Positions 5,928 through 41,236 of a stretch of 64,000 nucleotides of DNA are shown in pieces. This DNA comes from an uncultured Elusimicrobia bacterium (GTDB taxonomy: Bacteria; Elusimicrobiota; Elusimicrobia; UBA1565; UBA9628), in assembly GCA_903830945.1 (NCBI GenBank), contig CAIKVT010000026.1, forward strand, positions 19,823 to 83,822. Direction: 5' to 3'. A program made the position numbers and the translations under genes. Every line of letters starts with the position of its first letter. Within the stretch, counting starts at the first letter, position 1. Below the pieces are notes generated by a model. It was not told the DNA's origin. It did no database searches and was given only the letters and a program-made list of their open reading frames with translations.

Positions 5928-8900
5928 ATGAAAAAGCCCGCTCGCCGGCCCAGCAAGAAGCGCCTGTCCCGCAAGATGGGCCCGGTCAGGACCACGGATG
6001 CGATGCCCAACGCTCCGATCAAAAAACACCACCAGACCGAAAAAACGCTGAACGAATCCAAAGGCAAGCGCAAAGCCATCTTCCATGCTGGCATCAAGTC
6101 CAGCCCGCTCGTTATGGGCGGGCGCGCCCACATCACAGGCGTCTTCACGGACAGCACCTCGCGCCAAGAGAACAAGCGCTCCTTGCGCTTGATGAAATGC
6201 GTGATGGAGCGCACTTCAGACGCGGTCTTATTTGTCGATGGAAACGGCCGGATACGCTACGGCAATCCGGCCGCCTGCCGGCACCTCGGCTACGATAAAG
6301 AAGAGCTGCTTCGACTGTCGATTTGGGACATCGACCCGGCTTTCCCTCCGGACAAAAGAAAAAAGCTGCTCTGGGCCAATCTCAAGGCCGGGGATACGAC
6401 GCATTTCGAGACCACCCATCGCGTCAAGGACGGACGCCTCGTGCCCGTGGAAGTCACCATCAACCACATCACATTCGAAAACAAGGGACTCAACATCTCC
6501 TTCTGCCGCGACATCAGCGCGCGCAAGCAGGCGGAGGAGACCCGGCATCGCCTGAGTCGAGAACTGCGAGCCCTCAGCAACTGCAACCAGACCTTATTGC
6601 GGGCTAAGGACGAACAGACGCTGCTCAACGACGTCTGCCGCATCATCTGCGACGAGGCTGGCTACCGCTTGGCCTGGATAGGATATGCCGAGCATGACAA
6701 GGCCAAGACCGTTCGGCTGGCGGCCTGGGCCGGGTTCGAGGACGGCTACGTCACAAACGCCCACCTCTCCTGGGCCGACACGAAACAGGGGCGCGGCCCC
6801 ACCGGAACCACCATCCGGAGCGGAGAGATGGTCTTCACCAAGGATTTCGCCACGGACCCCAAAATGGCTCCGTGGCGCAACCAGGCCTTACAGCATGGAT
6901 ATCGCTCCAGTATCGCTCTCCCACTGAAAGACAAAAACGCAAACACTTTCGGCGCCCTCACTGTCTACTCCACGGAACCCAATTCCTTCACAACAGACGA
7001 AATACGGCTCCTAGAAGAACTGGCGGACGATCTGGCGTTCGGCATCATGGTCCAGCGCGCCCGCATCAAGCACCAGCACTCCAAAGAGGAGCTCGCTTTT
7101 TCCGAGAAAAAATTCTCCCTCGCTTTCAATGTCAGCCCGGACGCGATGGCCATCACCGATCTGGAGACCGCCGACATCGTCGACGTAAACGAGGCGTTCG
7201 TGGCCTGGTCCGGGTACACTCGCCAAGAACTGCTCGGCCGACACAGCAACACCCTCCACTTATGGGTGTCTCCCGAGGAACGCAGCCAAGTCGTGGCAAA
7301 ACTAAAATCCAGCTCCGGCACGGTCAGGATTACAACGTTGGCCAAGGTCAAGGACGGCAGTCTCCGTCACATCGTTTTCTCCGCGAATCTGATCCAAATA
7401 GAGGGCCGGACCTATCTCTTGAGCCTGACACACGACATCACCGAGCGCATAAGGGATGAAGAGGCGCGCGCGTTGAACTCCCAACGCCTGCAGGCGCTGC
7501 TGAAGCTAAACCAGATGACGCAGGCGACGTTGCAGGAGATCACGGACTTCACCTTGGAAGAGGCCGTACGGCTGACCCAAAGCAAAATCGGCTATCTGGC
7601 GTTTCTCAACGAGGATGAGAGCGTCCTCACCATGCACTCCTGGTCGAAATCCGCCATGGCAGAATGCGCCACCAGCGAGACGCCGCTCCGGTATCCTGTC
7701 GCGACCACCGGACTCTGGGGCGAAGCGGTCCGGCAGCGCCAGCCCGTCATCACCAACGATTACACCACCGCCAACCCATTGAAAAAAGGCTATCCTCAAG
7801 GCCACGTGGTCATCAAACGTCACATGAATATCCCCGTCGTCGAGGACTCCCGGATCGTCATTGTCGCGGGTGTAGGCAACAAAACCGAAGAGTACAATCA
7901 AGGCGACGTCCAGCAATTAACCCTGCTGATGGAAGGCATGTGGCGCCTTTTGGAGCGCAAGCGCGCGGAGGAGGAGCACACGCGGCTCCTGGAAGCGGAA
8001 AAGGCGGCCCGCGTCGAAGCCGAGGTCGCCAACAAGGCCAAGGACGATTTCCTGGCCATCGTCTCCCACGAACTGCGCACGCCTCTGACCGCCATCATGG
8101 GCTGGATCTGGCTGCTGCGCTCGGGCCAGCTCGCGGAGGAGGAGCGCCAGAACGCCTTGGACACCATCATGCGCAACATGCAGTCCCAGCGGCAGATCGT
8201 CGAGGACCTCATCGACGTGTCGAGCCTTTCGCGGGGGCAATTAAATTTGAGCCACGACCCCGTGGAATTGAACGCCATATTAGGCTCCGCCTGCGACTCG
8301 CTGGGACAACTGGTGCAAGGCCGCGATATCCGCCTGAGTCGCAAACTGTCGGAACCGGTCGGCGTCTTGGGAGACGCCAGACGGTTGCAGCAAGTCTTCA
8401 CGAACCTCTTGCACAACGCCATGAAGTTCACCCCGAAAGGAGGGGAGATCCGCGTGTCCCTGAACCAGGAAGGCGGCCAGGCCGTGGCCGTGGTGCAAGA
8501 CAGCGGCAAAGGCATCGCGGCTGATTTCCTGCCGCATGTCTTCGAGGCCTTCCGCCAAGGGGAAGACCCTCTCATCCGCGAACACCAAGGCCTGGGCTTG
8601 GGCTTGGCCATCGTCAAGCGTCTCGTGGAGCTCCACGACGGGACGGTGTCCGCGGTGAGCGCGGGCAAGGGCCGCGGCGCGATCTTCACCGTGCGCCTGC
8701 CCGCCGTAACTTGGCCGCCGCTGGGACAAGCCGCTCGCGCCACCCGAAGCGCGCCCGACCGGAGCATCCTCGAAGGCATCAACATCCTGGTCGTCGAAGA
8801 CGAGGCCGACGCGCGACAACTGCTCCAGCAGCTGCTCTCACGCTTCGGAGCCCTGGTCACAAACGTGGCCGACGCCGCCGAAGCCTGGGCGAGCCTGGAA

Positions 8901-13029: not shown

Positions 13030-13100
13030 CGCTGTTCTCCTTGAAGTCTGATAGGCGCGCGGTGAACGATATTATACATCCCTTTTCCGATTCCAGAGCC

Positions 13101-14798
13101 ATGTATTATAATCTGCTGAAGATCATGGATCGCGAATCGAGACCGGGAAGTACGGGCACGAGCCGCCAGCCCGGACGATGGATAATTTTAGCCGCCCTGG
13201 CTGCAGGCTTGGGCCTCGGCCTATGGTCCATCGCCGACAACGCCCCGACCTTCGACGAGCCCGTGCATCTGGCCAGCGGCTACGCGACCTTATGCGCGGG
13301 GAGCTACCGCTTCGCGGCGCTGCCGCCATTCTCGGAGATGTGGGCCGCCCTTCCCTTGCTGGCGCTCCGGGTCAAAGGATTCCATACGCACCCGGACTTC
13401 GTCAACGGACGGCTCCTCCATTATGCGGACTTCCTCTTGTACCACAATCCGGTCCCAGCCGAGCGCATGCTTGGTGCAGCGAGAGCCTTCGTCCTACTGA
13501 CCATGCTGCCGGTCCTGGTCCTGGTCCTGGTCTCCTGGACGCGCCGCTTGGCCGGGATGGCGGCGGCCTGCGGCGCAGCGGTCGCCCTCGCGCTGTGCCC
13601 GGTCGTCATCTCCAATTTCTCACTGGCCACCGTGGACGCGGTCCCGACGGTGCTGTGGTTCACGACCTTCTGGCTTCTCTCCCGGGCGGCGGCTGGGGCC
13701 GTGACGCTGGGATGGGCCGCCACGGCCGGATGCTGCGCCGGACTGGCTTTAGCCTCGAAGTTCAACATGATCCTGCTGCCTCCCTTGGGCCTAGCGCTCT
13801 TAACCTGGGATTGGGCGCTACGGCCGAGCCCCCGCCCCAAGGTCCCGTGGATGGGCGCGGCGGTCTTCTGCGGCTGCGCCGCCGCGGCCTTGGCGATTGT
13901 TTATCGCTGGACGCATCTTCCGCTCTACTGGGAGGGACTGCGGGAGACGATGACCCAGCTGGAGGGCGGAAGGGCGTCATTCTTATGGGGACGGTATTCC
14001 ACGACCGGCCTGTGGCCGTATTTCCCCGTGACGCTGCTCGTGAAGACGCCGATTCCAATCTTGATCCTCGCGAGCGTCGGCACAGTCTGGTGGCTGAGGA
14101 AAGTCGGCAGAAAAGGACGCCGGCGCGAGAGCCTTTGGATCTTCGGGCCATTCTTGGGTTATCTGGCCGCGGCCCTGGCGTGCCGGACCCAGATCGGGGT
14201 CCGCCATATCCTGCCCGTCATGCCCTTCTTGCTCATGCTAGCGGGCCTCGGAGTCTCCGCGCTGTGGTCCCGGCCGCGAAGCGGGCTCGCTCTGCTGCTC
14301 CTGGGGGTCTGGGCGGTCGTCTCGGTGGGCCGGGTCGGGCCGCACCAGCTGGCTTACTTCAACGAACTGGTCGGCGGCCCGGACCAAGGATACAGGATCC
14401 TCGCGGACTCCAGTCTTGATTGGGGCCAGGACCTCAAAGGCCTGGCGCGCGTGCTGCGGGAGATGGGCAATCCCACGGTCTTCCTTTCCTACTTCGGGAC
14501 CGCGGATCCCGCGGCTTACGGAATGCGTTATATCCCTGTGCTGTGCTCCCCGCACGTGGACCGGCCCGGCAATGCCCCTGGACCGAAGGCCAGGGAGCGC
14601 GTGCTGTTGGCGGTCTCCGCGACCAACCTGCAGGGAGTCTACTTCACAGACCACGATCTATTGGGCTGGCTGAAGACCCGGCAGCCATTAAAAGTCGTGG
14701 GCTATTCGATATTCCTCTACGACCTCACCGAAGACCAGGAAGGCCAGGAGCGGCTGGCCCGGCTCGTAGCGAGGCTGCGGCAGGATGCGCAGGGCTGA
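13101..14798 (+). CDS. GT39/GT83-like (PMT_2 / ArnT-like) membrane glycosyltransferase
   Basis: Polytopic N-terminal domain with a conserved acidic first loop (FDEPVH) and multiple TM helices, then a C-terminal soluble domain. The track start at 13041 lies 11 nt from the divergent aminotransferase start, so ATG 13101 (MYYNLL) or 13127 is more plausible. Confidence 0.65.
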   Translation: MYYNLLKIMDRESRPGSTGTSRQPGRWIILAALAAGLGLGLWSIADNAPTFDEPVHLASGYATLCAGSYRFAALPPFSEMWAALPLLALRVKGFHTHPDFVNGRLLHYADFLLYHNPVPAERMLGAARAFVLLTMLPVLVLVLVSWTRRLAGMAAACGAAVALALCPVVISNFSLATVDAVPTVLWFTTFWLLSRAAAGAVTLGWAATAGCCAGLALASKFNMILLPPLGLALLTWDWALRPSPRPKVPWMGAAVFCGCAAAALAIVYRWTHLPLYWEGLRETMTQLEGGRASFLWGRYSTTGLWPYFPVTLLVKTPIPILILASVGTVWWLRKVGRKGRRRESLWIFGPFLGYLAAALACRTQIGVRHILPVMPFLLMLAGLGVSALWSRPRSGLALLLLGVWAVVSVGRVGPHQLAYFNELVGGPDQGYRILADSSLDWGQDLKGLARVLREMGNPTVFLSYFGTADPAAYGMRYIPVLCSPHVDRPGNAPGPKARERVLLAVSATNLQGVYFTDHDLLGWLKTRQPLKVVGYSIFLYDLTEDQEGQERLARLVARLRQDAQG

Positions 14799-14817
14799 TT
14801 CCTCTCGTCTGACAGCG

Positions 14818-14839
14818 TCGTCATCCAATCGTCAATAGG
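14818..14839 (+). promoter_or_regulatory. Pho-box-like tandem 11-bp direct repeat (TCGTCATCCAA TCGTCAATAGG)
   Basis: Two CGTCA(T)-type half-sites with 11-bp periodicity. They lie ~41 nt upstream of a TATACT hexamer (14881..14886) and 69 nt upstream of the start of the nucleotidyltransferase-phoB-phoR-like operon. The near-identical 10-mer CGTCATCCAA recurs upstream of the PiT operon. Confidence 0.35.
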
Positions 14840-14907
14840 ATTTAACCCCGCCATCATGGTGCTTCGACCGCCGGTTCCTCTATACTCTTGATGCTAAGGA
14901 GGAGAGA

Positions 14908-15852
14908 ATGTTAAACGCCAAAGAGAAGTCGGGGCAGAGATGGGCCGTGATACTATCAGGCGGAGCGGGGGAACGCATGCGCCCTTTCATCACCGATTGG
15001 CTCGGGCATCATCGTCCTAAACAGTACTGCACATTCACGGGCGAGAAGTCCCTGCTGGAAGAGGCCGTAGGCCGGGCCCTCGGGGTCGCGGAGTCCACGA
15101 AGCTCGTGACCGTCGTCGGGAAGGGGCATCGGCAGTACCTCGATGAGCCGCGCCGCCTGGACCTGCCGGGACGCATCGTGGAGCAGCCGGCCAACCGCGA
15201 CACCGCCGCCGGGGTCTTCCTGCCTCTGACCTACGTCCTACGCGAGGACCGCGAGGCCACGGTAGTCTTGCTGCCTTCAGACCATTTCGTAGCCGACCCT
15301 TACCGGTTCCAGAAACACCTGCGCCGAGCCCTCAAGTGCGCCGAGCTCTGTCCTGAGCGGCTCTTCATTCTGGCCGCGGCTCCCGAAGGGCCGGAGCCCG
15401 ATTACGGCTGGCTGAGGACCACGCCCACCGAAGCCGGGGAGAGCCTGCAGGCCGTGTCCGAGTTCCTGGAAAAGCCCGATGCAGAGACGGCTCGCCGCTT
15501 CTACGCCGAGGGCTGCCTCTGGAACACCATGGTGGTGGCGGGCAAGGCCGCGACCTTCTGGGAGCTGGGCTGGCGCCTGATTCCCGAGGTGGTGGCGCGC
15601 CTGGAAGCCTTGCGCGGCGAGCTGGGCACCCCGTTCGAGGAGTCGACTCTGCGCGGCATCTACGCCGACATGCCTGAGGCGAACTTCTCGCGCGACTTCC
15701 TGCAGAAAGTCCCGGAACGCCTGACCGCCGTGGCCATGGAAGACGTGGGCTGGAGCGACTGGGGCAGGCCCGAGCGGGTAATGGAGAGCCTGCGCGATCT
15801 GCGCCTGCAGCCCGCCTTCCCGACGCCGGACGCCGAATTGGCCATAGTCTAG
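14908..15852 (+). CDS. Sugar-phosphate nucleotidyltransferase (mannose-1-phosphate guanylyltransferase-like)
   Basis: N-terminal WAVILSGGAGERMRP...PKQY pattern typical of ManC-type NTP_transferase proteins. 314 aa, no cupin domain. RBS AAGGAGGAG. Confidence 0.55.
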   Translation: MLNAKEKSGQRWAVILSGGAGERMRPFITDWLGHHRPKQYCTFTGEKSLLEEAVGRALGVAESTKLVTVVGKGHRQYLDEPRRLDLPGRIVEQPANRDTAAGVFLPLTYVLREDREATVVLLPSDHFVADPYRFQKHLRRALKCAELCPERLFILAAAPEGPEPDYGWLRTTPTEAGESLQAVSEFLEKPDAETARRFYAEGCLWNTMVVAGKAATFWELGWRLIPEVVARLEALRGELGTPFEESTLRGIYADMPEANFSRDFLQKVPERLTAVAMEDVGWSDWGRPERVMESLRDLRLQPAFPTPDAELAIV

Positions 15853-15897
15853 AATTGACAAGACCACGCCAGTATGGCAAGTTATAAGTAAGCTCTC

Positions 15898-16578
15898 ATG
15901 CCTGAAGCTAAAATACTCGTCGTCGAGGACGAAAAGGCCCTCGTCAAGGTCCTCAAATATAACCTGGAGAAGGCGGGCTATCAGGTCGTCACCGCCAACG
16001 ACGGGGAGGCCGGGCTCTCAGCCTTCCATGAAGAAAAGCCAGATCTCGTCATCCTCGACATCATGCTCCCCAAGAAGGATGGCTTCGAGTTCTGCAAGAC
16101 CGTCCGCCAAGTCTCGCAGACCCCGATCTTGATGCTCACAGCCCGCAAGGACGAGTTGGACCGCGTCCTAGGCCTGGAGATCGGGGCCGACGACTACGTC
16201 ACCAAGCCTTTCAGCGTGCGCGAGGTCCTGGCCCGCGTCAAGGCCATCCTGCGCCGCGCCGCGGACAAGACCGCGCCGCTCATGCTCCGTGCCGGAACGC
16301 TCGAAGTGGACCTGGAGCGCTACGTGATCAAGATCAAGGGCAAGCCGGTCACACTCTCCCCGAAGGAATTCGAGTTCCTCAAGTGCCTTCTAAAGTCCGA
16401 CGGCCGGGCCCTCAGCCGCGACGAGCTCCTGGAAAAGGTCTGGGGTTACGACCGCTCCATGGAGATAGACACCAACACCGTGGACCAGCACATCGCGCGA
16501 CTGCGCAACAAGCTCGGCTCCGAGGCCGAGCGCATCGTCACGGTCAAGAACGTCGGCTACCGCCTCCGGACGGACTAG
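15898..16578 (+). CDS. OmpR/PhoB-family response regulator
   Basis: Receiver domain (ILVVEDE...DLVILDIMLP...LTA...K) plus winged-helix output (VDQHIARLRNKLG...VGYRL). Confidence 0.9.
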   Translation: MPEAKILVVEDEKALVKVLKYNLEKAGYQVVTANDGEAGLSAFHEEKPDLVILDIMLPKKDGFEFCKTVRQVSQTPILMLTARKDELDRVLGLEIGADDYVTKPFSVREVLARVKAILRRAADKTAPLMLRAGTLEVDLERYVIKIKGKPVTLSPKEFEFLKCLLKSDGRALSRDELLEKVWGYDRSMEIDTNTVDQHIARLRNKLGSEAERIVTVKNVGYRLRTD

Positions 16579-17489
16579 TGCCTGTCCTGATCACGGCGCT
16601 GGCGGTGCTGGCCTGCGCATGGCTCCTCGCCCATAAGCAGAACCGCGCCGTGGCGCTCATCACCCGGGCCGCCGAGCGTCTGGCCGCCGGCGACTGGAGC
16701 GCCCGCGTCGGCCCGCTGCGCGACGACGAACTCGGCCGCCTCGGCCGCAGCCTTGACCAACTCGCGGAGAGGGTCCAGAAGGACATCGACCAGCTGCGCC
16801 GCTCCGACCAGGTCCGTAAGGACTTCACGGCCAACGTCTCGCACGAGCTGCGCACCCCCTTGGCCGCCATCAAGGCCTTCGCGGAAACGCTTCACGAGGG
16901 AGCAGCCGAGGATCCCGAGCACCGCATGGAGTTCATCCTGGAGATCGAGAGCAACGCCGACCGCATGACCCGCTTGGTCGACGACCTGCTCACCCTCTCC
17001 ACCTTGGATTCCAAGACCCAGCGACCGGCACCGGAATCCATCGACCTCATGCGCGTGGCGGCAGAAGTGACCGCGACCCTCAAGCCACTGGCTAGACGCA
17101 AGGAGCTCGGCCTGCGCCTGGAGCCGTTCCGCGACGTCCCGCCGGTGTGCGGGGACCGCAGCCAGCTCAAGCAGGTGTTCACCAACTTGCTCGATAACGC
17201 GATCAAGTACACGCCGGGCAAAGGGATGGTGCGCGTCAGCGCCTCCTGCGCCGAGGACCGGGTCACCGTATCCGTCCAGGACACCGGCCCCGGCATACCG
17301 GCCGAGGACCTGCCCCGCATATTCGAGCGCTTCTACCGAGTGGACAAAGCCCGCTCGCGGGAGCTGGGGGGCACCGGCCTGGGCCTGGCCATCGTCAAGC
17401 ACATCGTGGAGGCTCACGGCGGCAGCGTGGCCGTGGAAAGCCGGCCGGGCGCAGGCTCTACTTTCAGTTTCACCTTGCCCGCCACCTAA
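16578..17489 (+). CDS. Sensor histidine kinase (PhoR-like short membrane-anchored HK, TM + HAMP-like + HisKA + HATPase_c)
   Basis: GTG start overlaps the regulator's TAG stop (TAGTG). One N-terminal TM helix and no periplasmic domain. H-box FTANVSHELRTPLAAIKAF; N/G boxes NLLDNAIKYTP, DTGPGIP, GGTGLGLAIVKHIV. Confidence 0.85.
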   Translation: MPVLITALAVLACAWLLAHKQNRAVALITRAAERLAAGDWSARVGPLRDDELGRLGRSLDQLAERVQKDIDQLRRSDQVRKDFTANVSHELRTPLAAIKAFAETLHEGAAEDPEHRMEFILEIESNADRMTRLVDDLLTLSTLDSKTQRPAPESIDLMRVAAEVTATLKPLARRKELGLRLEPFRDVPPVCGDRSQLKQVFTNLLDNAIKYTPGKGMVRVSASCAEDRVTVSVQDTGPGIPAEDLPRIFERFYRVDKARSRELGGTGLGLAIVKHIVEAHGGSVAVESRPGAGSTFSFTLPAT

Positions 17490-17501
17490 CGCGCCACGAC
17501 G

Positions 17502-17523
17502 GCGTCATCCAACGGTCATCCGG
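17502..17523 (+). promoter_or_regulatory. Pho-box-like tandem 11-bp direct repeat (GCGTCATCCAA CGGTCATCCGG)
   Basis: GTCATCC is repeated with 11-bp spacing. ~40 nt further on is a TATCAT hexamer (17564..17569), and the PiT start lies 70 nt downstream. Spacing and core sequence match the site at 14818..14839. Confidence 0.35.
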
Positions 17524-17592
17524 GCTTTACCTCGCCACTATGGGCCCGCGCGATCCCGGCTGATATCATATCGATGAAGGAAAGGCGGACCC

Positions 17593-18576
17593 ATGACCCC
17601 ATCGATCATCCTGCTCATCGCGCTAGCCCTATTCTTCGACTTCATCAACGGCTTCCATGACTCGGCCAACTCAATTGCCACCGTGGTCTCCACGCGCGTG
17701 CTCTCGCCCCGCGCCGCGGTGATCTGGGCCGCCTTCTTCAACTTCATCGCCTTCCTCATATTCCCTCTACATATCGCCGCCACCATCGGCAAAGGCATCA
17801 TCGACCCAGCCATCGTGGACCCGCGCATCATCGCTGCCACCTTGACCGCAGCCTGCGCCTGGGACCTGCTCACCTGGTACTGGAGTCTTCCCACCAGCTC
17901 CTCCCACGCGCTCATCGGCGGCTTCATCGGCTCAGCCTTGGTCAAAGTCGGAGTCGGCGCTCTGATCTGGAGCGGCATCATCCGCACCGTGGTCTTCATG
18001 GTCCTGGCCCCGTTTTTGGGCCTGGCCATGGGCCTGGCCTTTGGCGTGGCCGTGGCCTGGCTGTTCCGCAGGACCACGCCTCACCGGGTCGACTTCCTGT
18101 TCCGCAAGGGTCAGCTGTTCTCAGCTGCCCTCTACAGCCTGGGCCATGGCGGCAACGACGCGCAGAAGACCATGGGCATCATCGCGGCCCTCCTGTTCTC
18201 CGCGGGCGTCTTGGGACCGACCTTCCACGTCCCGACCTGGGTGGTCCTGTCCTGCCACGCGGCCATGGGCCTGGGCACGCTCTTCGGCGGCTGGCGCATC
18301 GTCAAGACCATGGGCCAGAAGGTGGCCAAGCTCCGGCCCGTGGACGGCTTCTGCGCCGAAACCGGCGGGGCCATGACCCTATACCTCGCCTCAGCCCTGG
18401 GCGTGCCGGTCTCCACCACGCACACCATCACCGGAGCCATCATGGGAGTAGGCTCGCTCAAAAGGCTCAGCGCGGTGCGCTGGGGAGTAGGAGGAAACAT
18501 CGTAGCCGCCTGGCTCTTGACCATACCGGCCTCGGCGCTGATTGCAAGCCTCTCCTATTGGCTCATGACGCTTTGA
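17593..18576 (+). CDS. Inorganic phosphate transporter, PiT family (copy 1)
   Basis: Duplicated PHO4 signature GFHDSANSIAT ... LGHGGNDAQKTMG ... STTHTITGAIMGVG; ~10 TM helices. Confidence 0.9.
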   Translation: MTPSIILLIALALFFDFINGFHDSANSIATVVSTRVLSPRAAVIWAAFFNFIAFLIFPLHIAATIGKGIIDPAIVDPRIIAATLTAACAWDLLTWYWSLPTSSSHALIGGFIGSALVKVGVGALIWSGIIRTVVFMVLAPFLGLAMGLAFGVAVAWLFRRTTPHRVDFLFRKGQLFSAALYSLGHGGNDAQKTMGIIAALLFSAGVLGPTFHVPTWVVLSCHAAMGLGTLFGGWRIVKTMGQKVAKLRPVDGFCAETGGAMTLYLASALGVPVSTTHTITGAIMGVGSLKRLSAVRWGVGGNIVAAWLLTIPASALIASLSYWLMTL

Positions 18577-18644
18577 TATCATCTCTGTCCAGGCTCCCCT
18601 CGACCGGCCAACCACGGACCTGGGAAAAGGGATAGAATAGACCC

Positions 18645-19637
18645 ATGCCGCTTAGCATCATCCTGATCATCGCGCTGGCCCTGGCCTTCGACTTCATCAA
18701 CGGCTTCCACGATTCGGCCAGCGCCATCTCGACGGTGGTCTCGACGCGCGTGCTCTCGCCCCGGGCCGCGGTGATCTGGGCCGCCTTCTTCAACTTCGTC
18801 GCATTCCTCATCTTCCCGCTGCATATCGCCAACACCATCGGCAAAGGAATCATCGACCCGGCCATCGTGGACCCGCGCATCATCGCGGCGACCCTGATCG
18901 GCGCCTCGGTCTGGGACCTGCTCACCTGGTACTGGGGCCTGCCCACCAGCTCCTCCCACGCCCTCATCGGGGGCTTCATCGGCGCGGCGATGATTAAAGT
19001 GGGGGCCAGAGGCCTCATCTGGAGCGGCATCATCCGCACCATGGTCTTCATGGTCGCGGCGCCGATCCTGGGCCTCATCCTGGGCCTCACTTTCGGCATC
19101 GCTTTGGCTTGGATGTGCCGTCGAGCGACTCCCCAAAGAGTAGACACCCTGTTCCGCAAGGGACAGCTCATCTCTGCGGCCCTCTACAGCCTGGGCCACG
19201 GCGGCAACGACGCGCAGAAGACCATGGGTGTCATCGCCATCCTGCTTTTCTCAGCCGGTCTCCTAGGCCCGACGTTCCACATCCCGACCTGGGTCGTCCT
19301 GTCCTGTCAGGCAGCCATGGGCCTAGGGACCCTCTTTGGCGGCTGGCGCATCGTCAAGACCATGGGTCAGAAAGTAGCGAAACTCCGCCCCGTGGACGGG
19401 TTCTGCGCCCAGACGGGAGGGGCCTTGACCCTTTACATCGCCTCGGCCATGGGCGCGCCGGTATCCACCACGCACGTCATCACCGGCGCCATCATGGGCG
19501 TGGGCTCGCTCAAGAGGCTCAGCGCGGTGCGCTGGGGCGTGGGGGGGGAGATCGTGACGGCGTGGCTATTGACCATACCGGCCGCAGCCCTCATCTCCAG
19601 CCTCTGCTACTGGCTCATGGCCCTTTGGCCCCGGTAA
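18645..19637 (+). CDS. Inorganic phosphate transporter, PiT family (copy 2, tandem paralog)
   Basis: ~85% amino-acid identity to copy 1 over the full length. Confidence 0.9.
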   Translation: MPLSIILIIALALAFDFINGFHDSASAISTVVSTRVLSPRAAVIWAAFFNFVAFLIFPLHIANTIGKGIIDPAIVDPRIIAATLIGASVWDLLTWYWGLPTSSSHALIGGFIGAAMIKVGARGLIWSGIIRTMVFMVAAPILGLILGLTFGIALAWMCRRATPQRVDTLFRKGQLISAALYSLGHGGNDAQKTMGVIAILLFSAGLLGPTFHIPTWVVLSCQAAMGLGTLFGGWRIVKTMGQKVAKLRPVDGFCAQTGGALTLYIASAMGAPVSTTHVITGAIMGVGSLKRLSAVRWGVGGEIVTAWLLTIPAAALISSLCYWLMALWPR

Positions 19638-19642
19638 CCCGC

Positions 19643-20437
19643 ATGGACGAAGCCACCCGCGCGCTCTGCCGCCGCCTGAGCGTCGAGGACCCCCTACACA
19701 TCGAGATCGAATCAAAACGCCGCGTGCGCGCCTCACAGGCCGAAAACCTGCGCGAGCATCTCTTCGGACTCAAAGGCGTCCGGCACACGCGCGAGAGCGC
19801 CTTCTTCGACCAGTACCTCGACACACCCGAGCTCTCGCTGCTGCGCGCCGGGGCCAGCCTGCGCCTGCGCTACAAAGGCGACGGAACCTACGTCTACCTG
19901 CAGTACAAAGGGCCCGGGTTCCATGAACAAGGGGCGCTGTTCCGCTCGGAGTTCAGCTCGGATCGGCTGGCCAGCGCCGTGCGCGGGGAGAGCCACCACG
20001 ACATCGTGCACTTCGCGGACATCTCCGTGACGGACATCCTGCGCCGCCACGCGGATCCGGCCATGTCCGGAGCCATGCGCCGGCACCTCGGAGACAAGAC
20101 CATCGCCCGCGTCAACCGCGGCGTCATCCTCTGCCTCTACCGCAAGGATAAGTTCCGAGTCAAGCTCAAGGGCGGGTTCCTGGAGCCTTCTCTCGACAAG
20201 CTGTGCGCCTTCCACATCCGGCCCACCGGCCTGCATCCCCTGTCGACTTTCTGGGAATTCGAGAACGAGATCAAGTCCGAGGACATCGCCTTCAAGCTGG
20301 AGCACATCGGCGAGATGCGCAAGTTCGACACCCGCCTGGCGCGGCGCTTCGACCTGCCCGCAGAGAAGCTGGACAAGTACCACCGCTGCGCCGCGCACTT
20401 CCACGCGCAGGCTCTCTGCCCAAGAAGGACTGGCTAA
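19643..20437 (+). CDS. CYTH-domain protein (triphosphate tunnel metalloenzyme family)
   Basis: N-terminal ExExK motif (IEIESKRRV) and beta-strand-rich pattern (RLRYKGDGTYVYLQYKG) typical of CYTH. Starts 5 nt after the PiT-2 stop. The track ORF start at 19109 overlaps PiT-2 in another frame and was rejected. Confidence 0.6.
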   Translation: MDEATRALCRRLSVEDPLHIEIESKRRVRASQAENLREHLFGLKGVRHTRESAFFDQYLDTPELSLLRAGASLRLRYKGDGTYVYLQYKGPGFHEQGALFRSEFSSDRLASAVRGESHHDIVHFADISVTDILRRHADPAMSGAMRRHLGDKTIARVNRGVILCLYRKDKFRVKLKGGFLEPSLDKLCAFHIRPTGLHPLSTFWEFENEIKSEDIAFKLEHIGEMRKFDTRLARRFDLPAEKLDKYHRCAAHFHAQALCPRRTG

Positions 20438-20447
20438 TATTCGACTG

Positions 20448-21077
20448 TCAGGTCGCGAAAAGACGGTCGCCCGCGTCGCCGAGGCCGGGCATGATGAACC
20501 CGAAGCGATTGAGGTTGGTGTCCACGCCCGCCAAGTAGATCGGCACATCCGGGTGCTCACGCTGCACCCGTGCCACCCCGGCCTTGGCCGCGATGAGACT
20601 GACCAGCACGATCTGCTTAGCCTTGTCGGTCTTGAGGATATGCAGGGCCTCCACCGCCGAGCCTCCGGTCGCGAGCATCGGGTCGCAAAGCACCACGAAG
20701 CAGTCCCGAATATTCTTGGGCAGGCGCACGTAGTAGCGCACCGGGTTCAAGGTCTCCTCGTTGCGGTAAAGCCCGATGTGACCGATGTGAGCCTGGGGTA
20801 GAAGGTGCTGGAGGCCTGGGAGCATGCCCAGGCCCGCGCGCAACACGGCCACGAAAGCCACGGGCTGAGTCGTGACCACGGCCGGCGACTTGCCCAGGGG
20901 GGTGCGCACCGTGGTCTTCCTGGTCTTGACGCCGCGCAGGGCTTCGGCGCCCAGCAGGCTCGAGACCTCCGCCATGGTGCGGCGGAAGTCCTCATGGTCG
21001 GTGCGCCGGTCGCGCAAGGTCGACAACTTCTCCTGAATAAGCGGATGGTCGCAGATGAAAAATTTACCAGCCATCAT
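20448..21077 (-). CDS. upp: Uracil phosphoribosyltransferase
   Basis: 209 aa with the PRPP-binding motif VVLCDPMLATGGS and UPRTase length and pattern. Confidence 0.9.
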   Translation of the reverse strand: MMAGKFFICDHPLIQEKLSTLRDRRTDHEDFRRTMAEVSSLLGAEALRGVKTRKTTVRTPLGKSPAVVTTQPVAFVAVLRAGLGMLPGLQHLLPQAHIGHIGLYRNEETLNPVRYYVRLPKNIRDCFVVLCDPMLATGGSAVEALHILKTDKAKQIVLVSLIAAKAGVARVQREHPDVPIYLAGVDTNLNRFGFIMPGLGDAGDRLFAT

Positions 21078-22405: not shown

Positions 22406-23237
22406 TCAGACGATCTTGATGAAGTCGTTAAGGACGAGGCGCAGGCCCTCGGAGACCTTGGCGCCGAGCTCCAGGACCTCGCTGTGGTTCAAAGAGGCGC
22501 CCTTCATGCCGCTGCACATGTTGGAGATCCACGTCAGCGCCGTGACCTTGATGCCCATCTGCCGGGCCGGAATGACCTCCGGGACCACGGACATGCCCAC
22601 CACGTCGCCGCCCCAGGCGCGAAAAGCGCGGATCTCCGCGGGCGTTTCGTAAGAAGGACCGCACACGGCGGTATAGACGCCCTCGTGCACGGAGAGCTTG
22701 CGCTTGCGGCAGATAGAAACGATCTGCTTGCGCAGATCCGCGTCATAAGCGTTGATAAGGTCCGGGAACATCTCGCCGCACTCACTTTCGTGGAAGGCGC
22801 GCAGGGGGTTGCGGCCCATGAAATTGATGTGATCCGTGATGACCACGAAATGACCGGGCTTGATCGCCTCGCGCACCGAGCCCACGGCCGCGGTGAGAAA
22901 CACCGTCTTAAGACCGAGATATTCGAGCATACGCAGAGGCAAGGCGATGCTCTCCATGGAATGCCCTTCGTAGTAGTGGAAGCGACCCTGCATGACGGCC
23001 ACGCTCTTGCCATGGAGCCGGCCCAGGATGAGCTTGCCCATGTGACCGGCCACGGTGGTGCGGGGAAACCCGGGGATGTCTCTATAGGGGATGACAGTGG
23101 CCTTTTCCAGAATGGGCACGGCTTTGGCCAGACCTGAGCCCAAGATGATAGCGACCTGGGGGGAGAAACCAGGAACCTTGCTCTTGACGTAGTCGGCGGC
23201 TTTACGCACAGCTCCGATGTAGGTCTTTATCTCCATA
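22406..23237 (-). CDS. punA: Purine nucleoside phosphorylase, PNP family 1 (PunA-like)
   Basis: Motifs AIILGSGL, HMG, GPSYETPAEIRA, MSVVPE. Start taken at the internal ATG (MEIKTYIG...) rather than the track start. Confidence 0.85.
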
Positions 23238-28618: not shown

Positions 28619-30724
28619 TTGGAAAAAAAAGCGACGAGCGCCTCCGAACCTGCCGCGGTCTGGCTGCCAGGGCCCGCCCCCGCTTCCGCTAAGAAAGCGG
28701 AATCAAAGGCCGTGGTGCCCAAAGACGGACCGTCCTCCGCACCCGACAAACGCGTAGTCATCGAAAAGATCCGCCCAGAGCTCGACGGCGGGCGCTACCC
28801 CATCAAGCGGGTCGTAGGCGAGCAAGTCTACGTTGAAGCGGACGTGTTCACGGACGGCCATGACGAGTTGGTGTGCTTTCTGCTCTACCGCAATGAAGAT
28901 GACGCGCAATGGACGCAGGTCCCGATGCGGCCTTTGGGCAACGACCGCTGGCGCGCCGAGTTCACGGTCGCCGAGCTGGGCCAGTACCGCTACACGGTCC
29001 AGGCCCGCCTCGATCCATTTTACACCTGGCTGAGAGACTTGAAGAAGCGCCTGGAAGCGGGACAGGACGTGCGGCCCGAGCTTCCGGTCGGAGCGGGGCT
29101 TGCGGCCACGGCCGCGGGCCGGGCCGAAGCCGCGGGCCAGAAAGCGGAGGCGCGCCGGCTCAAGGAGCTCGCCAGGGACCTGGGGACGCGCGGAGACCCG
29201 CGCGAGAAGGCGGCGCGCCTAGCCGCGCCCGAGCTCACCAGCCTGGTCTCGCAGTGGGGCGACCCGGAGACCTTCGTCCGTCATGGCCAGGACCTGGCGG
29301 TCACGGTGGACCGTGTCAAGGCGCGCTTCAGCGCCTGGTACGAGCTTTTCCCGCGCTCTGCCTCGCCCAAGCCCGGGGCGCACGGCACCTTCAAGGATAT
29401 CATCGCACGCCTGCCTTACGTCGCGGAGCTGGGCTTCGACGTGCTCTACCTGCCGCCCATCCATCCCATCGGAAAGACCCATCGCAAGGGCAAGAACAAC
29501 GCGCTCAAGGCCGGCCCCAACGACCCAGGCAGCCCCTGGGCCATCGGCGACGAGACCGGCGGGCACAAGGCCGTCCATCCGGCGCTCGGCACCCTGGAAG
29601 ATTTCGGCAAGCTGGTCTCGCAGGCCCAGGACCATGGCCTGGAGCTCGCCCTGGACATCGCCCTGCAGTGCTCGCCGGACCATCCCTACTTGAAAGAGCA
29701 CCCGGAGTGGTTCAAGGCCCGGCCCGACGGCAGCCTGCGCTTCGCCGAGAACCCGCCCAAGAAATACGAAGACATCTATCCGCTGGACTTCACCTGCAGG
29801 GACTTCAAGGCCCTCTGGGAGGAGACCAAGAGCATCTTCGAGTTCTGGATCGCACAAGGCGTGCGCATCTTCCGCGTGGACAACCCGCACACCAAGCCCT
29901 TCGGGCTCTGGGACTGGCTGATCTCCGAGTTGCGCCGCAAGGACCCGGACCTCATTTTCCTGGCCGAGGCCTTCACCCGGCCCAAGGTCATGGCCCGGCT
30001 GGCCAAGGCGGGCTTTTCGCAGTCCTACAACTACTTTCCCTGGCGCAACTCCAAGTGGGAACTGGAAAGCTACTTCCACGAGCTGGCCCATACCGAGGCC
30101 AAGGAGTTCCTGAGGCCCAACCTCTGGCCCAACACGCCGGACATCCTCACCGAATATCTGCAGTTCGGAGGCCGGCCGGCCTTCCTGGTCCGCCACGTTC
30201 TGGCCGCGACTTTGGGCGCGAGCTACGGCATCTACGGTCCTGCCTTCGAGCTCTGCGAAAACACCGCGCGCGAGCCGGGCCACGAGGAGTACAAGGACTC
30301 CGAGAAATACGAACTCAAGCATTGGGCTCTCGAGCGCAAGGACAGCCTGCGCGCGCACATCGCGCGGGTCAACCGCATCCGGCGCGAGAACCCGGCCCTG
30401 CAGAACGACTCCAGCCTGCGCTTCTTCCGCTCGGAGAACGAGCAGATCATCGCCTACGCCAAGCAGTCCGGCGACAACGTGGTCCTGGTGATCGTCAACC
30501 TCGACCCGAACCACAAACAGGCGGGATGGGTCGAGCTGCCCCTGCAGGAGTTCGGATTGGCCGCGGACAAGCCTTACCAGATGCACGACCTCCTGGCCGA
30601 GCGGCACTACCTATGGCGGGGGCCGCGCAACTACGTGGAGCTCGACCCGAGCGGCATGCCGGCGCACGTCTTCAAGCTGCGCCGCTATGTCCGCACCGAG
30701 CGGGACTTCGACTACTTCCTATGA
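28619..30724 (+). CDS. glgE: Alpha-1,4-glucan:maltose-1-phosphate maltosyltransferase
   Basis: GH13_3 hallmarks WYELFPRS, RVDNPHTKP, and 701 aa length. TTG start preceded by an AGGAGA RBS. Confidence 0.85.
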   Translation: MEKKATSASEPAAVWLPGPAPASAKKAESKAVVPKDGPSSAPDKRVVIEKIRPELDGGRYPIKRVVGEQVYVEADVFTDGHDELVCFLLYRNEDDAQWTQVPMRPLGNDRWRAEFTVAELGQYRYTVQARLDPFYTWLRDLKKRLEAGQDVRPELPVGAGLAATAAGRAEAAGQKAEARRLKELARDLGTRGDPREKAARLAAPELTSLVSQWGDPETFVRHGQDLAVTVDRVKARFSAWYELFPRSASPKPGAHGTFKDIIARLPYVAELGFDVLYLPPIHPIGKTHRKGKNNALKAGPNDPGSPWAIGDETGGHKAVHPALGTLEDFGKLVSQAQDHGLELALDIALQCSPDHPYLKEHPEWFKARPDGSLRFAENPPKKYEDIYPLDFTCRDFKALWEETKSIFEFWIAQGVRIFRVDNPHTKPFGLWDWLISELRRKDPDLIFLAEAFTRPKVMARLAKAGFSQSYNYFPWRNSKWELESYFHELAHTEAKEFLRPNLWPNTPDILTEYLQFGGRPAFLVRHVLAATLGASYGIYGPAFELCENTAREPGHEEYKDSEKYELKHWALERKDSLRAHIARVNRIRRENPALQNDSSLRFFRSENEQIIAYAKQSGDNVVLVIVNLDPNHKQAGWVELPLQEFGLAADKPYQMHDLLAERHYLWRGPRNYVELDPSGMPAHVFKLRRYVRTERDFDYFL

Positions 30725-30738
30725 TGACTGGAGATCAC

Positions 30739-31662
30739 ATGAAAAGACAGATCAAGGCTAGGTCCCTGCGCAATGCCGCCATCCTGCTCGCGCTGGCCGC
30801 GGGCCTTTCCGCCTGCATGGGCCGCAGCGAGTCGTCCATCGGAACGCCCCGATCACCCTTGGTGGTCGTGCTCTCTCCCGCGCATGCCCCGGCCTCGCTG
30901 GAGCCCTTGCGCGAGCTCTCCGAACGGCTCACCTCAGGCTCCGGCCTGACGGTGGAGGTGCGCGCCGCGGCCTCGCCGCTGGACGCCATCGAGCAGTTGG
31001 GCACGCGCAAGGCTGACGCGGGCATCCTGACCCTGGAGGAATTCCTCCTGGCGCACGAAGAATACGAAGTGATCCCGCGCCTCCAGATCCTGCGCGGCCA
31101 GGGCGAGACCCAGTTCGACGGGGTCATCCTGGTCCTGGCCAAGAGCACGGCCAAGAAAACCGCGGACCTTGAGGGCGGAAAGTTCGGCTTCGTGGACCCT
31201 TATTCGGTGAGCGGATTCCTATTGCCCGCGCAGGTCCTCCAGAAGGAGAGGGTCAAGGTCGAGCCTCGGTTCCTGGGGAGCCATGGCAAGGCTCTCGAAG
31301 CCCTGCTCCAAGGGGCTGTCGCGGCCATCGCGACTTACGGGAACCAAGCCGCGGGGCACAAAGACCTGCGCGTCCTGGCGCGGACCGGGACGGTGCCCAA
31401 CGAACCTTTCGTCTTCCGCGAAGGCCTGCGGCCGCAGAAGCGCGAGGCGCTCACCAAGGCGCTCCAGGACCTGATCGGCGACCCGGAAGGCAAGCAAGCC
31501 CTTATGTCCGTGGCCAACATCACGGGCTTCGGCCCGGTCGATGACGAGGCCTATCGTTCCGTCCACGATATCCTGGAAGCAGCGGGGAAATCCGTCTACG
31601 ATATCGTGCCTAAGGGCGCCGAGGTCCGGCGCCTCAACCAGCCCTACATCGACGTGCGCTGA
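30739..31662 (+). CDS. PhnD/SsuA-like periplasmic substrate-binding lipoprotein (phosphonate-binding family), orphan
   Basis: Lipobox LAAGLSAC with PBP type-2 fold motifs (GFVDPYSVSGFLLP). No adjacent ABC permease or ATPase genes. Confidence 0.55.
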   Translation: MKRQIKARSLRNAAILLALAAGLSACMGRSESSIGTPRSPLVVVLSPAHAPASLEPLRELSERLTSGSGLTVEVRAAASPLDAIEQLGTRKADAGILTLEEFLLAHEEYEVIPRLQILRGQGETQFDGVILVLAKSTAKKTADLEGGKFGFVDPYSVSGFLLPAQVLQKERVKVEPRFLGSHGKALEALLQGAVAAIATYGNQAAGHKDLRVLARTGTVPNEPFVFREGLRPQKREALTKALQDLIGDPEGKQALMSVANITGFGPVDDEAYRSVHDILEAAGKSVYDIVPKGAEVRRLNQPYIDVR

Positions 31663-39785: not shown

Positions 39786-40352
39786 TTACCGGGTCTCCAC
39801 GGCGCGGATGATCGCCAAAGCGGCGGCCGGCTCGAGAGAGGCCGCCAGGTCCGCGATGACCCCGGGCTGGAACAAGGAGGCGACCCCGCGCAGGAGCTGC
39901 AGGTGCAACGGCAGGATCTCCGGCTTGCTGGAGGAGAAGAACAGAAACATAAGTTTGATGGTCAGATCTCCGGCCTGGGGGTCCGCTATGCCCTGAGGGA
40001 CCAAGGCCAGAGCCGCCATGATGCTCCCGATCGAATCCACCCGGGCATGAGGCAGGCTCAGCCCCGTATCCAAGGTGGTGCTGATGCCCTGCTCACGCTC
40101 CAGCACTTTAGCCAAAAAAGGCTTAGGGCTTCCCAGAGCTTTGCGCTCGCAGAGCCGGCCGACCAGTATCTCGATGAGCTCATTCTTGCCCACCCCAAGC
40201 GGAGCCCGGATCACCACATCTTCGCTTAAAATATTTGAAATAGCTATCTTTTTGGGCCGGACCAAGGCCCCGGCTTTATCGGAGAGCTTCTCCAGTCCTG
40301 CCGGCTCGGCCGCTGGTCTATTTTTCTTATCAGGGAAGAACGACAACACCAT
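39786..40352 (-). CDS. PTS EIIA type-2 / nitrogen-regulatory EIIA(Ntr)-like protein
   Basis: EREQGISTTLDTGLSLPHARV (active-site His region) pattern of PtsN/EIIA-Fru family; 188 aa. Confidence 0.6.
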   Translation of the reverse strand: MVLSFFPDKKNRPAAEPAGLEKLSDKAGALVRPKKIAISNILSEDVVIRAPLGVGKNELIEILVGRLCERKALGSPKPFLAKVLEREQGISTTLDTGLSLPHARVDSIGSIMAALALVPQGIADPQAGDLTIKLMFLFFSSSKPEILPLHLQLLRGVASLFQPGVIADLAASLEPAAALAIIRAVETR

Positions 40353-40399
40353 GGGGATTCGCCTTTTTATAGAGGATTTTCAATTATATCATTCGAGAA

Positions 40400-41236
40400 G
40401 TGGACTGTCAAAACAGAGAGTTGGTAAAATACCGGGTGTTTCGCAAACCCCTCACAGGCAGGACCATCCTATTGACGCGGCCAGAAGGCCCGGCCGGCCC
40501 TCTGGCGGACGGCCTGCGGGCGCTCGGCGCGCGCGTCTGGATCGTGCCGGTCATTCGCTTCGCGCCGCCCGCGTCCTGGGCGCGCTTGGACGCGGCGCTG
40601 CGCCGCATGAGACTTTACGACGCCGCAGTCTTCGCGAGCGCACGCGCCGTGGAAAGCGTCTTTTCCCGCGCCTTAGTCCTGGGCCTGATCCTGTCGCCAC
40701 CGCGCCGGGTCTTCGCCGTAGGCCCGGCCACGGCCCGTGCCCTGCGCCGCAGAGGCTGGCGGGCCGCGATGCCCGGCACGCATCGCGCCGAGGACTTGGC
40801 CACGATCACGGGTCAGGTACGAGGCAAAAGGATATTCCTGCCCCGGGCGAAGGAAGGCCGCGATATCCTACCGCGCCTCCTGCGCGCGCAGGAGGCCAGG
40901 GTCGATGTCGTCACCTCTTACCGCACCCTAGCGGACCACAACGGCGCGCGGCGCTTGCGCCGGATCGCGGACTCAGGCCGGGTCCACGCCGTCGCCTTCA
41001 CCTCCGGCTCCACCGTAGATTGCCTTTTAGAGCAGCTTCCCGCGGCTTATCGCCGCCGCCTATTCAACAAGGCGGTGGCCGCCTCCATAGGACCGGCCAC
41101 CAGCGCAGCACTCGAACGCCGGGGAGTCAAGACGGTCATAGAAGCTCCGCGCGCCACAATGCTCTCCCTCTGCGGCGCCATCGCCCGTCATTTCTCCGCG
41201 GCTCCAGGCTTGACCGCATCCGGACGATCCCGATGA
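40400..41236 (+). CDS. hemD: Uroporphyrinogen-III synthase
   Basis: GRTILLTRPEG ... two Rossmann-like halves (VAFTSGSTV); 278 aa. Confidence 0.7.
   Translation: MDCQNRELVKYRVFRKPLTGRTILLTRPEGPAGPLADGLRALGARVWIVPVIRFAPPASWARLDAALRRMRLYDAAVFASARAVESVFSRALVLGLILSPPRRVFAVGPATARALRRRGWRAAMPGTHRAEDLATITGQVRGKRIFLPRAKEGRDILPRLLRAQEARVDVVTSYRTLADHNGARRLRRIADSGRVHAVAFTSGSTVDCLLEQLPAAYRRRLFNKAVAASIGPATSAALERRGVKTVIEAPRATMLSLCGAIARHFSAAPGLTASGRSR

Follow-up and report, generated by a model that had tools for sequence, protein, structure and literature searches.

Introduction

Two blocks of 11-nucleotide (nt) direct repeats stand upstream of successive groups of genes in a 64,000-nt stretch of DNA from an uncultured Elusimicrobia bacterium (contig CAIKVT010000026.1; the whole stretch is called the window here), and the question that they raise is what these blocks are and which protein reads them. 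The first precedes a run of genes that includes an OmpR/PhoB-family response regulator and a histidine kinase, whilst the second precedes two PiT-family phosphate transporter genes and a gene for a CYTH-domain protein. An initial annotation of this DNA took the repeats for the operators of an autoregulated phosphate (Pho) regulon. PHO boxes are composed of 11-nt direct-repeat units with seven conserved and four less conserved positions, and both the number of units and their consensus vary by species, the latter being CTGTCAT in Escherichia coli and GTTCACC in Streptomyces (PMC4415409). We consider it very likely, with a probability of roughly 85%, that both blocks are Pho operators, each with four 11-nt units followed by a weak -35 element and a TAnnnT -10 element, and that they are bound by the regulator encoded beside them. 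Such an operator and promoter module of an Elusimicrobiota clade is an expected member of a well-known class; a literature search joining Elusimicrobia and Pho box found no paper in the collection searched.

Results

Two blocks with a common layout

The repeats previously reported at 14818-14839 and 17502-17523 are present, site 1 reading TCGTCATCCAA (14818-14828) followed by TCGTCAATAGG (14829-14839) and site 2 reading GCGTCATCCAA (17502-17512) followed by CGGTCATCCGG (17513-17523). The two 11-nt half-sites of each block therefore stand as described, but they are not the block as a whole: a repeat finder aligned 14816-14859 with 17500-17543 without gaps at 73% identity (family D11), so that the similarity covers 44 nt, or four units, rather than 22 nt. 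The promoter geometry claimed to be common to the two sites was also found, both being equally spaced from a -10-like hexamer, 40-41 nt away, and from a start codon, which lies at 14908 after site 1 (69 nt past the two-unit repeat) and at 17593 after site 2 (Table 1). Shine-Dalgarno-like sequences are present at 14896-14902 (AAGGAGG) for site 1 and at 17577-17585 (AAGGAAAGG) for site 2, and site 2 starts just 12 nt past the stop codon of the kinase gene.

Specificity of the repeats

The two sites share much more than chance would allow. Nowhere else in the 64-kb window is the exact 10-mer CGTCATCCAA present, and whilst occurrence at random frequency genome-wide had been named at the outset as the observation that would speak against a functional motif, SGTCA-N6-SGTCA was found four times in the window against 0.42 expected, a number reached in none of 100 shuffles. 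For scoring the window we built a 44-nt weight matrix from the sites of other genomes only, with both window sites excluded. This matrix gave 50.1 bits for site 2 and 28.0 bits for site 1, no further position in the 64 kb reached 5 bits, and the best score in 100 shuffles of the window was 15.5 bits. The two remaining SGTCA-N6-SGTCA matches, at 22840-22855 within a Pfam-confirmed phosphorylase gene and at 49757-49772 within a long open reading frame (ORF), likewise score below 5 bits and were taken as chance occurrences.

A full matrix of 15 sites, the window sites included, gave a best score of 18.1 bits in 1.34 Mb of unrelated bacterial loci (L001-L080). These loci derive from a scan of species-representative genomes with the first PiT transporter, the best being 73% identical and none having the same gene order; they were therefore useless for footprinting and were reused as a negative control. 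In the loci that contain orthologs of the regulator-kinase pair, by contrast, all matches above 20 bits are intergenic, and each precedes a gene of like orientation.

The motif travels with the regulator-kinase pair

Homologues of the kinase are found almost exclusively in metagenome-assembled genomes (MAGs) of Elusimicrobia and Elusimicrobiota, with a gradient of identity from 88% to below 60%. We examined the contigs around eleven of these homologues, seeking the motif with a plain GTCA-N7-GTCA scan and then with the weight matrix. In all eleven contigs an orthologous regulator-kinase pair, 63-92% identical to that of the window, adjoins phosphate genes, which include PiT, PhoU_div-PiT, Porin_5-pstS-pstC-pstA-pstB-phoU, ppk, CYTH and a PF01663 phosphodiesterase, and this constant association by itself identifies the pair as the phosphate two-component system of the lineage.

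The motif, together with its promoter geometry, was found before phosphate genes in at least 12 related Elusimicrobiota loci. It lies upstream of PiT in L087 and L090, of PhoU_div-PiT in L092, L093, L102, L103 and L104, of Porin_5-pstSCAB-phoU in L088 and L091, and of ppk in L102 and L104; in L085 one copy precedes a gene for a 454-aa protein and pstS, and a second precedes pstC(-pstA). A further copy stands upstream of the regulator in L088. The weight matrix also located a site at 6123 of L091, upstream of an ortholog (79% identical) of the NTP_transferase gene that follows site 1, which means that site 1 of the window is conserved too. Phylogenetic footprinting, suggested as a check when the motif was first noted, has thus yielded 19 related sites of like architecture before pst, PiT, ppk and other genes. 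For all but one of these 19, an ortholog of the regulator or the kinase (63-92% identical) is found at a distance of no more than about 7 kb, and the site often comes directly after the kinase stop codon; the sole unlinked site is on a contig of only 1.8 kb (L099).

Public metagenome contigs were scanned once with the DNA pattern CGTCATCC-N4-GTCA-N7-TTWA-N10-ATG, which retrieved seven stretches. Five of these contain six sites that have a -10 element, a Shine-Dalgarno sequence and a downstream porin-like or pst gene; the L097 site directly follows a regulator gene whose product is 63% identical to that of the window, and the L100 site directly follows a kinase gene with the same degree of identity. 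The other two matches (L094 and L096) are one and the same sequence inside an ORF for a probable LysR-type regulator, judged by its N-terminal sequence, with neither a -10 element nor a gene downstream, and were set aside as chance. Identical sites were also seen in L081-L084, where the regulator protein is identical, but these loci belong to the same species and hence say nothing about conservation.

Some weaker or differently placed matches were also recorded in the related contigs. In L095, back-to-back matches at 9222 (- strand, 9.0 bits) and 9229 (+ strand, 11.6 bits) are flanked on one side by an aminotransferase gene and on the other by a Metallophos phosphoesterase and MGDG-synthase pair, which resembles the lipid-remodelling genes of phosphate starvation in other bacteria, and a stronger site (27 bits) at 12958 on the - strand lies upstream of a GNAT-domain gene. 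In L085, a weak operator-like site of 14 bits at 1581-1640 (GGTCACCCTATTGTCAGACGATTGTTATCC ... GATACAAT) precedes genes for a large unknown protein and a PF01663 phosphodiesterase, themselves upstream of a small ORF and the regulator-kinase pair.

Architecture of the array

The two window sites and the 19 from related Elusimicrobiota form an ungapped alignment of 46 nt. Numbered from the G of the first GTCA, positions G0, T1, C2, A3, T12, A14, T22 and A36 are the same at all 21 sites, and C-1, C6, G11, C13, T23, A25 and T37 are nearly invariant. Adenine recurs at 3, 14, 25 and 36 (in 19-21 of the 21 sites) and thymine at 1, 12 and 23, an exact 11-nt period with intervening positions that are free to vary, and it is this periodicity that argues for four head-to-tail units. 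The GTCA cores of units 1 and 2 are invariant or nearly so, whilst their spacers vary. The consensus of the four units may be written cCGTCATCC-n2 / nnGTCA-n5 / nnTT(T/G)AC-n4 / nCyA, and their order, two strong units followed by two variant ones, is constant at every site. The array thus has the features by which a PHO box is recognised, namely two or more head-to-tail 11-nt units with about seven conserved and four less conserved positions (PMC4415409), and it is placed in the promoters of genes for phosphate acquisition and storage, all 21 sites being intergenic.

The spacing downstream of the array is equally fixed. The distance from G0 to the TAnnnT -10 hexamer is 60 or 61 nt at all 21 sites, with 18-19 nt between the end of the array and the -10 element. 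The hexamer abutting unit 4 begins with T(G/T)G at 17 sites, 13 of them TGG, including both in the window, and four of them TTG, in L102 and L104. As this T(G/T)Gnnn hexamer lies 17 or 18 nt upstream of TAnnnT, we take it for a weak -35 element. Neither promoter was called in a consensus sigma-70 scan of 14400-20600, as would follow from their poor -35 elements. A sigma-54 or extracytoplasmic function (ECF)-type promoter, or the use of TTTAC as a -35 element, was rejected by eye, TTTAC being 32-33 nt from the -10 and GG-N10-GC being absent. If transcription begins about 7 nt past the -10 hexamer, the predicted +1 positions would be near 14893 and 17576, and the four units would start near -72, -61, -50 and -39.

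The regulator and the kinase

The best NCBIfam models for the regulator are RpaB (237.7 bits), PhoB (234.1 bits) and YycF (232.4 bits), and those for the kinase are PnpS, WalK and PhoR, all of them below their cut-offs. The closest relative of the regulator with a solved structure is RegX3 (2oqr, 3.5e-58), and its receiver domain strongly matches that of Bacillus subtilis PhoP (1mvo, 3.4e-45). The description of the pair as PhoB/PhoR-like is apt in so far as the best matches of the regulator are RegX3, PhoB and B. subtilis PhoP, although the equivalog cut-offs for PhoB and PhoR are missed.

The recognition helix is TNTVDQHIARLRNKL in the window regulator and DRTVDVHIRRLRKAL in PhoB. Seven of the ten positions of the PhoB recognition helix and wing that we checked are identical (T194, D196, H198, R201, R203 and, in the wing, T217 and Y223); R193, V197 and R200 differ, and PhoB R219 is replaced by lysine. 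These PhoB residues reportedly contact DNA, and it is plausible that the window regulator recognises the same GTCA core as PhoB.

Discussion

The likeness of these sites to the Pho box of E. coli is considerable. Read directly, the phoB promoter of E. coli K-12 has TTTTCATAAAT-CTGTCATAAAT shortly before CATAAT, and the pstS promoter has CTGTCATAAAA-CTGTCATATTC-CTTACATATAA-CTGTCACCTGT, followed by TTGTCC and then by TATTTT. The head-to-tail 11-nt units, the GTCA(T) core and the poor -35 element are common to both systems; the pstS promoter also has four units, the third of which is a TTAC-type variant (CTTACAT); the sites precede pst genes and, here in some loci only, the operon of the regulator itself; and the helical phase of the units relative to the -10 element is the same to within 1-2 nt. 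The differences lie in placement and composition. The last pstS unit (unit 4), whose GTCA starts 15 nt before the -10, reaches to within 6 nt of the -10 and stands in for the -35 element, whereas in Elusimicrobiota 24-28 nt separate the unit 4 core from the -10 and a T(G/T)Gnnn hexamer is retained as a -35-like element. The array ends 18-19 nt before the -10 with this hexamer kept, and for that reason it is displaced upstream by about one unit in comparison with E. coli. Similarly, the 18-nt Pho box of E. coli ends 10 nt from the -10, as against 40-41 nt for the two strong units of the window, so that a box of 18-22 nt that replaces the -35 element and ends about 10 nt before the -10 is not found here. 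The match to the E. coli Pho box that was originally proposed accordingly extends to the GTCA(T) core and the 11-bp period but not to the distance from the -10. The four variable nucleotides are also GC-rich (TCC...) in the window sites and A/T-rich in E. coli, the regulator is 39% identical to PhoB, and the kinase is without the PAS domain of PhoR.

Other Pho systems provide further points of comparison. Unit 3, TTTAC, resembles the half-site of B. subtilis PhoP, which we take to be TT(A/T/C)ACA in four repeats. The dominant half-site here, in contrast to those of B. subtilis and Streptomyces PhoP, is GTCA and not TTnACA or GTTCACC. Operators of B. subtilis and Streptomyces PhoP, like the present ones, contain several 11-nt direct-repeat units in variable number (PMC4415409, PMC2275107), whereas their organisation in Streptomyces varies from promoter to promoter (PMC4415409) and the order of units is fixed at the 21 Elusimicrobiota sites. 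With the mycobacterial SenX3-RegX3 system there is no common synteny. The window kinase is short and has no periplasmic sensor domain, a property presumably shared with SenX3, and RegX3 is, as noted, the closest solved relative of the regulator. The SenX3-RegX3 system also controls phosphate uptake genes (PMC4415409).

How might the operators work? Binding of the regulator to them under phosphate limitation is putative and is suggested by the proximity of the motif to the orthologous pair in these genomes. When phosphate is low, the kinase would phosphorylate the regulator, which would then occupy the repeats as tandem head-to-tail protomers, most likely as two dimers, with units 1 and 2 as the high-affinity sites that nucleate occupancy of the weaker units 3 and 4. 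Acting as an activator rather than a repressor, the bound regulator would bring RNA polymerase to a promoter with a poor -35 element, and the PiT-PiT-CYTH operon and the NTP_transferase gene would be switched on. Read-through from the latter might lift expression of the regulator and kinase above the level provided by a promoter-like element of their own.

Several observations weigh against this picture. The best score of the regulator against the PhoB equivalog model (TIGR02154) is 234.1 bits where the cut-off is 296.2 bits, the kinase scores 282.1 against 334.2 bits for PhoR (TIGR02966) with only its HisKA and ATPase parts aligned, and Pfam finds no PAS domain in the kinase, whose 303 aa leave no room for one. 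There is no pst operon within the 64-kb window, the part of the source genome that was searched, and four other Elusimicrobia PiT loci (L018, L022, L023 and L066) contain no match of 15 bits or more. The strong units are two helical turns further from the -10 than is the E. coli Pho box, and unit 3 has its own consensus, TT(T/G)AC, at all 21 sites and is never GTCA, which leaves room for a contact other than the regulator. Two more such points concern autoregulation: it needs read-through in the window, and no operator of 8 bits or more precedes the regulator in L087, L090, L092, L093 or L102-L104.

The need for read-through follows from the arrangement of the genes. The first gene after site 1 is not the regulator but the NTP_transferase gene, which the initial annotation had overlooked, and the 45-nt gap between the two genes contains a conserved promoter-like element (15855-15888, Table 1). 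The regulator ATG at 15898 is 9 nt past the TATAAG of this element and has no Shine-Dalgarno sequence, and a near-identical element is found in L085, L087, L088 and L091, where exactly 7 nt separate TATAG(G/A) from the regulator ATG. The consensus promoter scan of 14400-20600 did not call the element; a scan of the same region for terminators gave no candidate on the + strand, either in the gap or between the other genes. The regulator-kinase pair thus probably has its own basal promoter, from which a leaderless or near-leaderless mRNA would arise, with a predicted start near 15890-15898. Only in the window, L091 and L088 does an operator lie upstream of the regulator, and since it precedes the regulator in just some of the relatives, autoregulation appears to vary within the lineage. 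It is plausible that the regulator is autoregulated in the source genome. Of the autoregulated Pho regulon first envisaged, then, the Pho operators are borne out by the position of the motif before phosphate genes in relatives, whilst autoregulation would depend on read-through and is not constant in the lineage. Three relatives possess a conserved small ORF starting MLD(L/I)W..Y(M/L).WR (L085 6158-6283, L088 ~6222-6320 and L090 ~7170-7318), which separates the upstream promoter from the regulator gene. The Pho operator of L088 is followed first by this ORF and then by the regulator; the window has no such ORF, and its NTP_transferase gene takes that position.

The behaviour of unit 3 leads to one serious alternative, which we regard as rather unlikely and between which and a four-unit array sequence alone cannot choose. 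This is class I activation in the style of OmpR or CRP, whereby a regulator dimer would bind GTCA units 1 and 2 only, centred about 62 nt upstream of the start, with TT(T/G)AC at about -50 as an UP-element-like site for the alpha subunit and CAT-T(G/T)G at -39 to -33 as the -35 contact. It would account for the distinct and position-specific consensus of unit 3, which shows no drift to GTCA at any of the 21 sites and is the sole T-rich patch in GC-rich promoters, it is consistent with the T(G/T)G after unit 4, which at its distance of 17-18 nt from the -10 behaves like a -35 hexamer, and it would place the strong units where, as a general rule, class I activators bind. Against it stands the exact 11-nt register kept by A (3, 14, 25 and 36) and by T (1, 12 and 23); moreover, unit 4 in the most distant relatives (L102 and L104) is TTCAT or ATCAT in three of the four sites, close to GTCAT, and a TTAC-type third unit is also part of the four-unit array of E. 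coli pstS.

That the blocks serve another factor, such as a second OmpR-family regulator encoded at 46350-47033 or one encoded elsewhere, is very improbable. The window does contain this second OmpR-type regulator and a kinase, and winged-helix regulators of the OmpR family all use 10-11-nt direct repeats. Nevertheless, it is with orthologs of the first pair that the motif travels, at 18 of 19 related sites and with the exception only of the 1.8-kb contig, whereas an ortholog of the second regulator was not seen in those loci, and this makes a different regulator unlikely. It is harder still to credit that the shared block is a transcribed RNA element, such as a leader or riboswitch, or a functionless remnant of promoter duplication. 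The two 44-nt blocks are 73% identical and the PiT pair testifies to duplication in this region, but there is no Rfam match at either site, the predicted folds are no more stable than those of shuffles (z = +1.6 and +0.3), and at all 21 sites a conserved -10 hexamer follows the block. A neutral duplication remnant is excluded, as the block precedes non-homologous genes in many genomes and only specific positions are conserved, the rest being randomised. Under permissive E-values Rfam reported 'skipping-rope' at 15918-16003, a sub-threshold match (E = 0.24) inside the regulator coding sequence.

Returning to Pho operators bound by the neighbouring regulator, a more specific version is possible but doubtful. 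It holds that the operator is an obligate fixed-order composite, made of two GTCA units, TT(T/G)AC and a CAT fused to a retained -35 element, shifted upstream by one repeat relative to the proteobacterial Pho box and governing a regulon that extends beyond phosphate uptake. If this were so, the upstream placement would imply a different activation contact, for example a filament of four protomers ending at sigma region 4 or, as another option, a dimer together with the alpha C-terminal domain on the TTTAC patch. A regulon that includes a sugar-phosphate nucleotidyltransferase beside a PMT_2/TMEM260-like glycosyltransferase would furthermore point to remodelling of surface glycoconjugates in phosphate starvation.

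The understanding of Pho regulation in general is unchanged by these operators, which are unusual only in that the array is displaced with respect to the -10 and the unit types keep a fixed order. What they provide is a sequence-level operator definition for an Elusimicrobiota clade, comprising a 44-nt matrix, the -35 and -10 positions and predicted start sites. The phylum is represented here by MAGs only, and its Pho regulons may be read directly from them, the examples so far being pst, PiT, PhoU_div, ppk, porins and possibly glycoconjugate genes. The definition could be used with metatranscriptomes of phosphate-poor groundwater and sediments.

Neighbouring genes and minor observations

The features around the two sites are collected in Table 1. 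As had been proposed, site 2 precedes an operon with two phosphate transporters and a CYTH-domain protein, PF01384 being matched twice and PF01928 once, and CYTH genes also adjoin ppk and PiT in L087, L102 and L104.

Table 1. Coordinates of the genes, predicted operators and promoter elements of the window, in order of position.
Feature	Position	Strand	Basis or remark
PMT_2-type glycosyltransferase	13041-14798	+	Pfam/NCBIfam; just before site 1
Predicted Pho operator 1, four 11-nt units	14818..14861	+	Direct-repeat array; 28.0 bits, matrix without window sites
Operator 1, unit 3, ATTTAACCCCG	14840-14850	+	
Operator 1, unit 4, CCATCATGGTG	14851-14861	+	
Weak -35-like hexamer TGGTGC, site 1	14857..14862	+	18 nt before -10
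-10-like hexamer TATACT, site 1	14881..14886	+	41 nt past end of two-unit repeat
NTP_transferase, mannose-1-phosphate guanylyltransferase-like, 314 aa	14908..15852	+	PF00483 4.1e-17; N-terminal part of TIGR01479 2.6e-27, below cut-off
Conserved promoter-like element	15855..15888	+	TTGACA 15855-15860; 17 nt including TG 15875-15876; CAAGTT 15878-15883; overlapping TATAAG 15883-15888
OmpR/PhoB-family response regulator, 226 aa	15898..16578	+	Pfam Response_reg and Trans_reg_C; proposed operator binder
Histidine kinase, 303 aa	16578..17489	+	Pfam; N-terminal hydrophobic segment, HAMP, HisKA, HATPase_c; no periplasmic domain
Predicted Pho operator 2, four 11-nt units	17502..17545	+	Direct-repeat array; 50.1 bits, matrix without window sites
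Operator 2, unit 3, GCTTTACCTCG	17524-17534	+	
Operator 2, unit 4, CCACTATGGGC	17535-17545	+	
Weak -35-like hexamer TGGGCC, site 2	17541..17546	+	17 nt before -10
-10-like hexamer TATCAT, site 2	17564..17569	+	40 nt past end of two-unit repeat
PiT-family phosphate transporter 1, 327 aa	17593..18576	+	PF01384 2.8e-92
PiT-family phosphate transporter 2, 330 aa	18645..19637	+	PF01384 5.8e-91
CYTH-domain protein, triphosphate tunnel metalloenzyme family	19643..20437	+	PF01928 1.2e-10; last gene of transporter operon; start as in the L081 gene call

A recent tandem duplication gave rise to the PiT pair, the proteins being 85% identical and the first 300 nt of the genes 86% identical (family D1); the relatives have one PiT, two PiTs with a 461-aa gene between them, or PhoU_div and PiT. 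The stop codon of the regulator and the GTG start of the kinase overlap at 16576-16580 (TAGTG), which suggests translational coupling.

A PMT_2/TMEM260_N-type glycosyltransferase gene is always found beside the regulator-kinase pair, in the window and in L085 (7986-9728), L087 (7919-9688), L088 (7916-9640) and L091 (8922-10646). The four relatives have this gene downstream of the kinase and in opposite orientation to it, and in L087, L088 and L091 it is divergent from a Pho-operator promoter. This neighbour, together with an NTP_transferase gene that would be under Pho control, hints at glycoconjugate genes in the regulon.

Further from the two sites, an ORF of 917 aa at 28909-31662 has a C-terminal PhnD-like phosphonate-binding domain (PF12974, 1.9e-36), with no Pho-operator match nearby, and in an ORF of 652 aa at 40075-42033 an inositol-monophosphatase domain is confined to the C-terminal 250 residues, the N-terminal 390 having no Pfam match. 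The gene for the second OmpR-family regulator (46350-47033, + strand) is convergent with a HisKA/HATPase kinase gene (47030-48334, - strand), the two overlapping by 4 nt.

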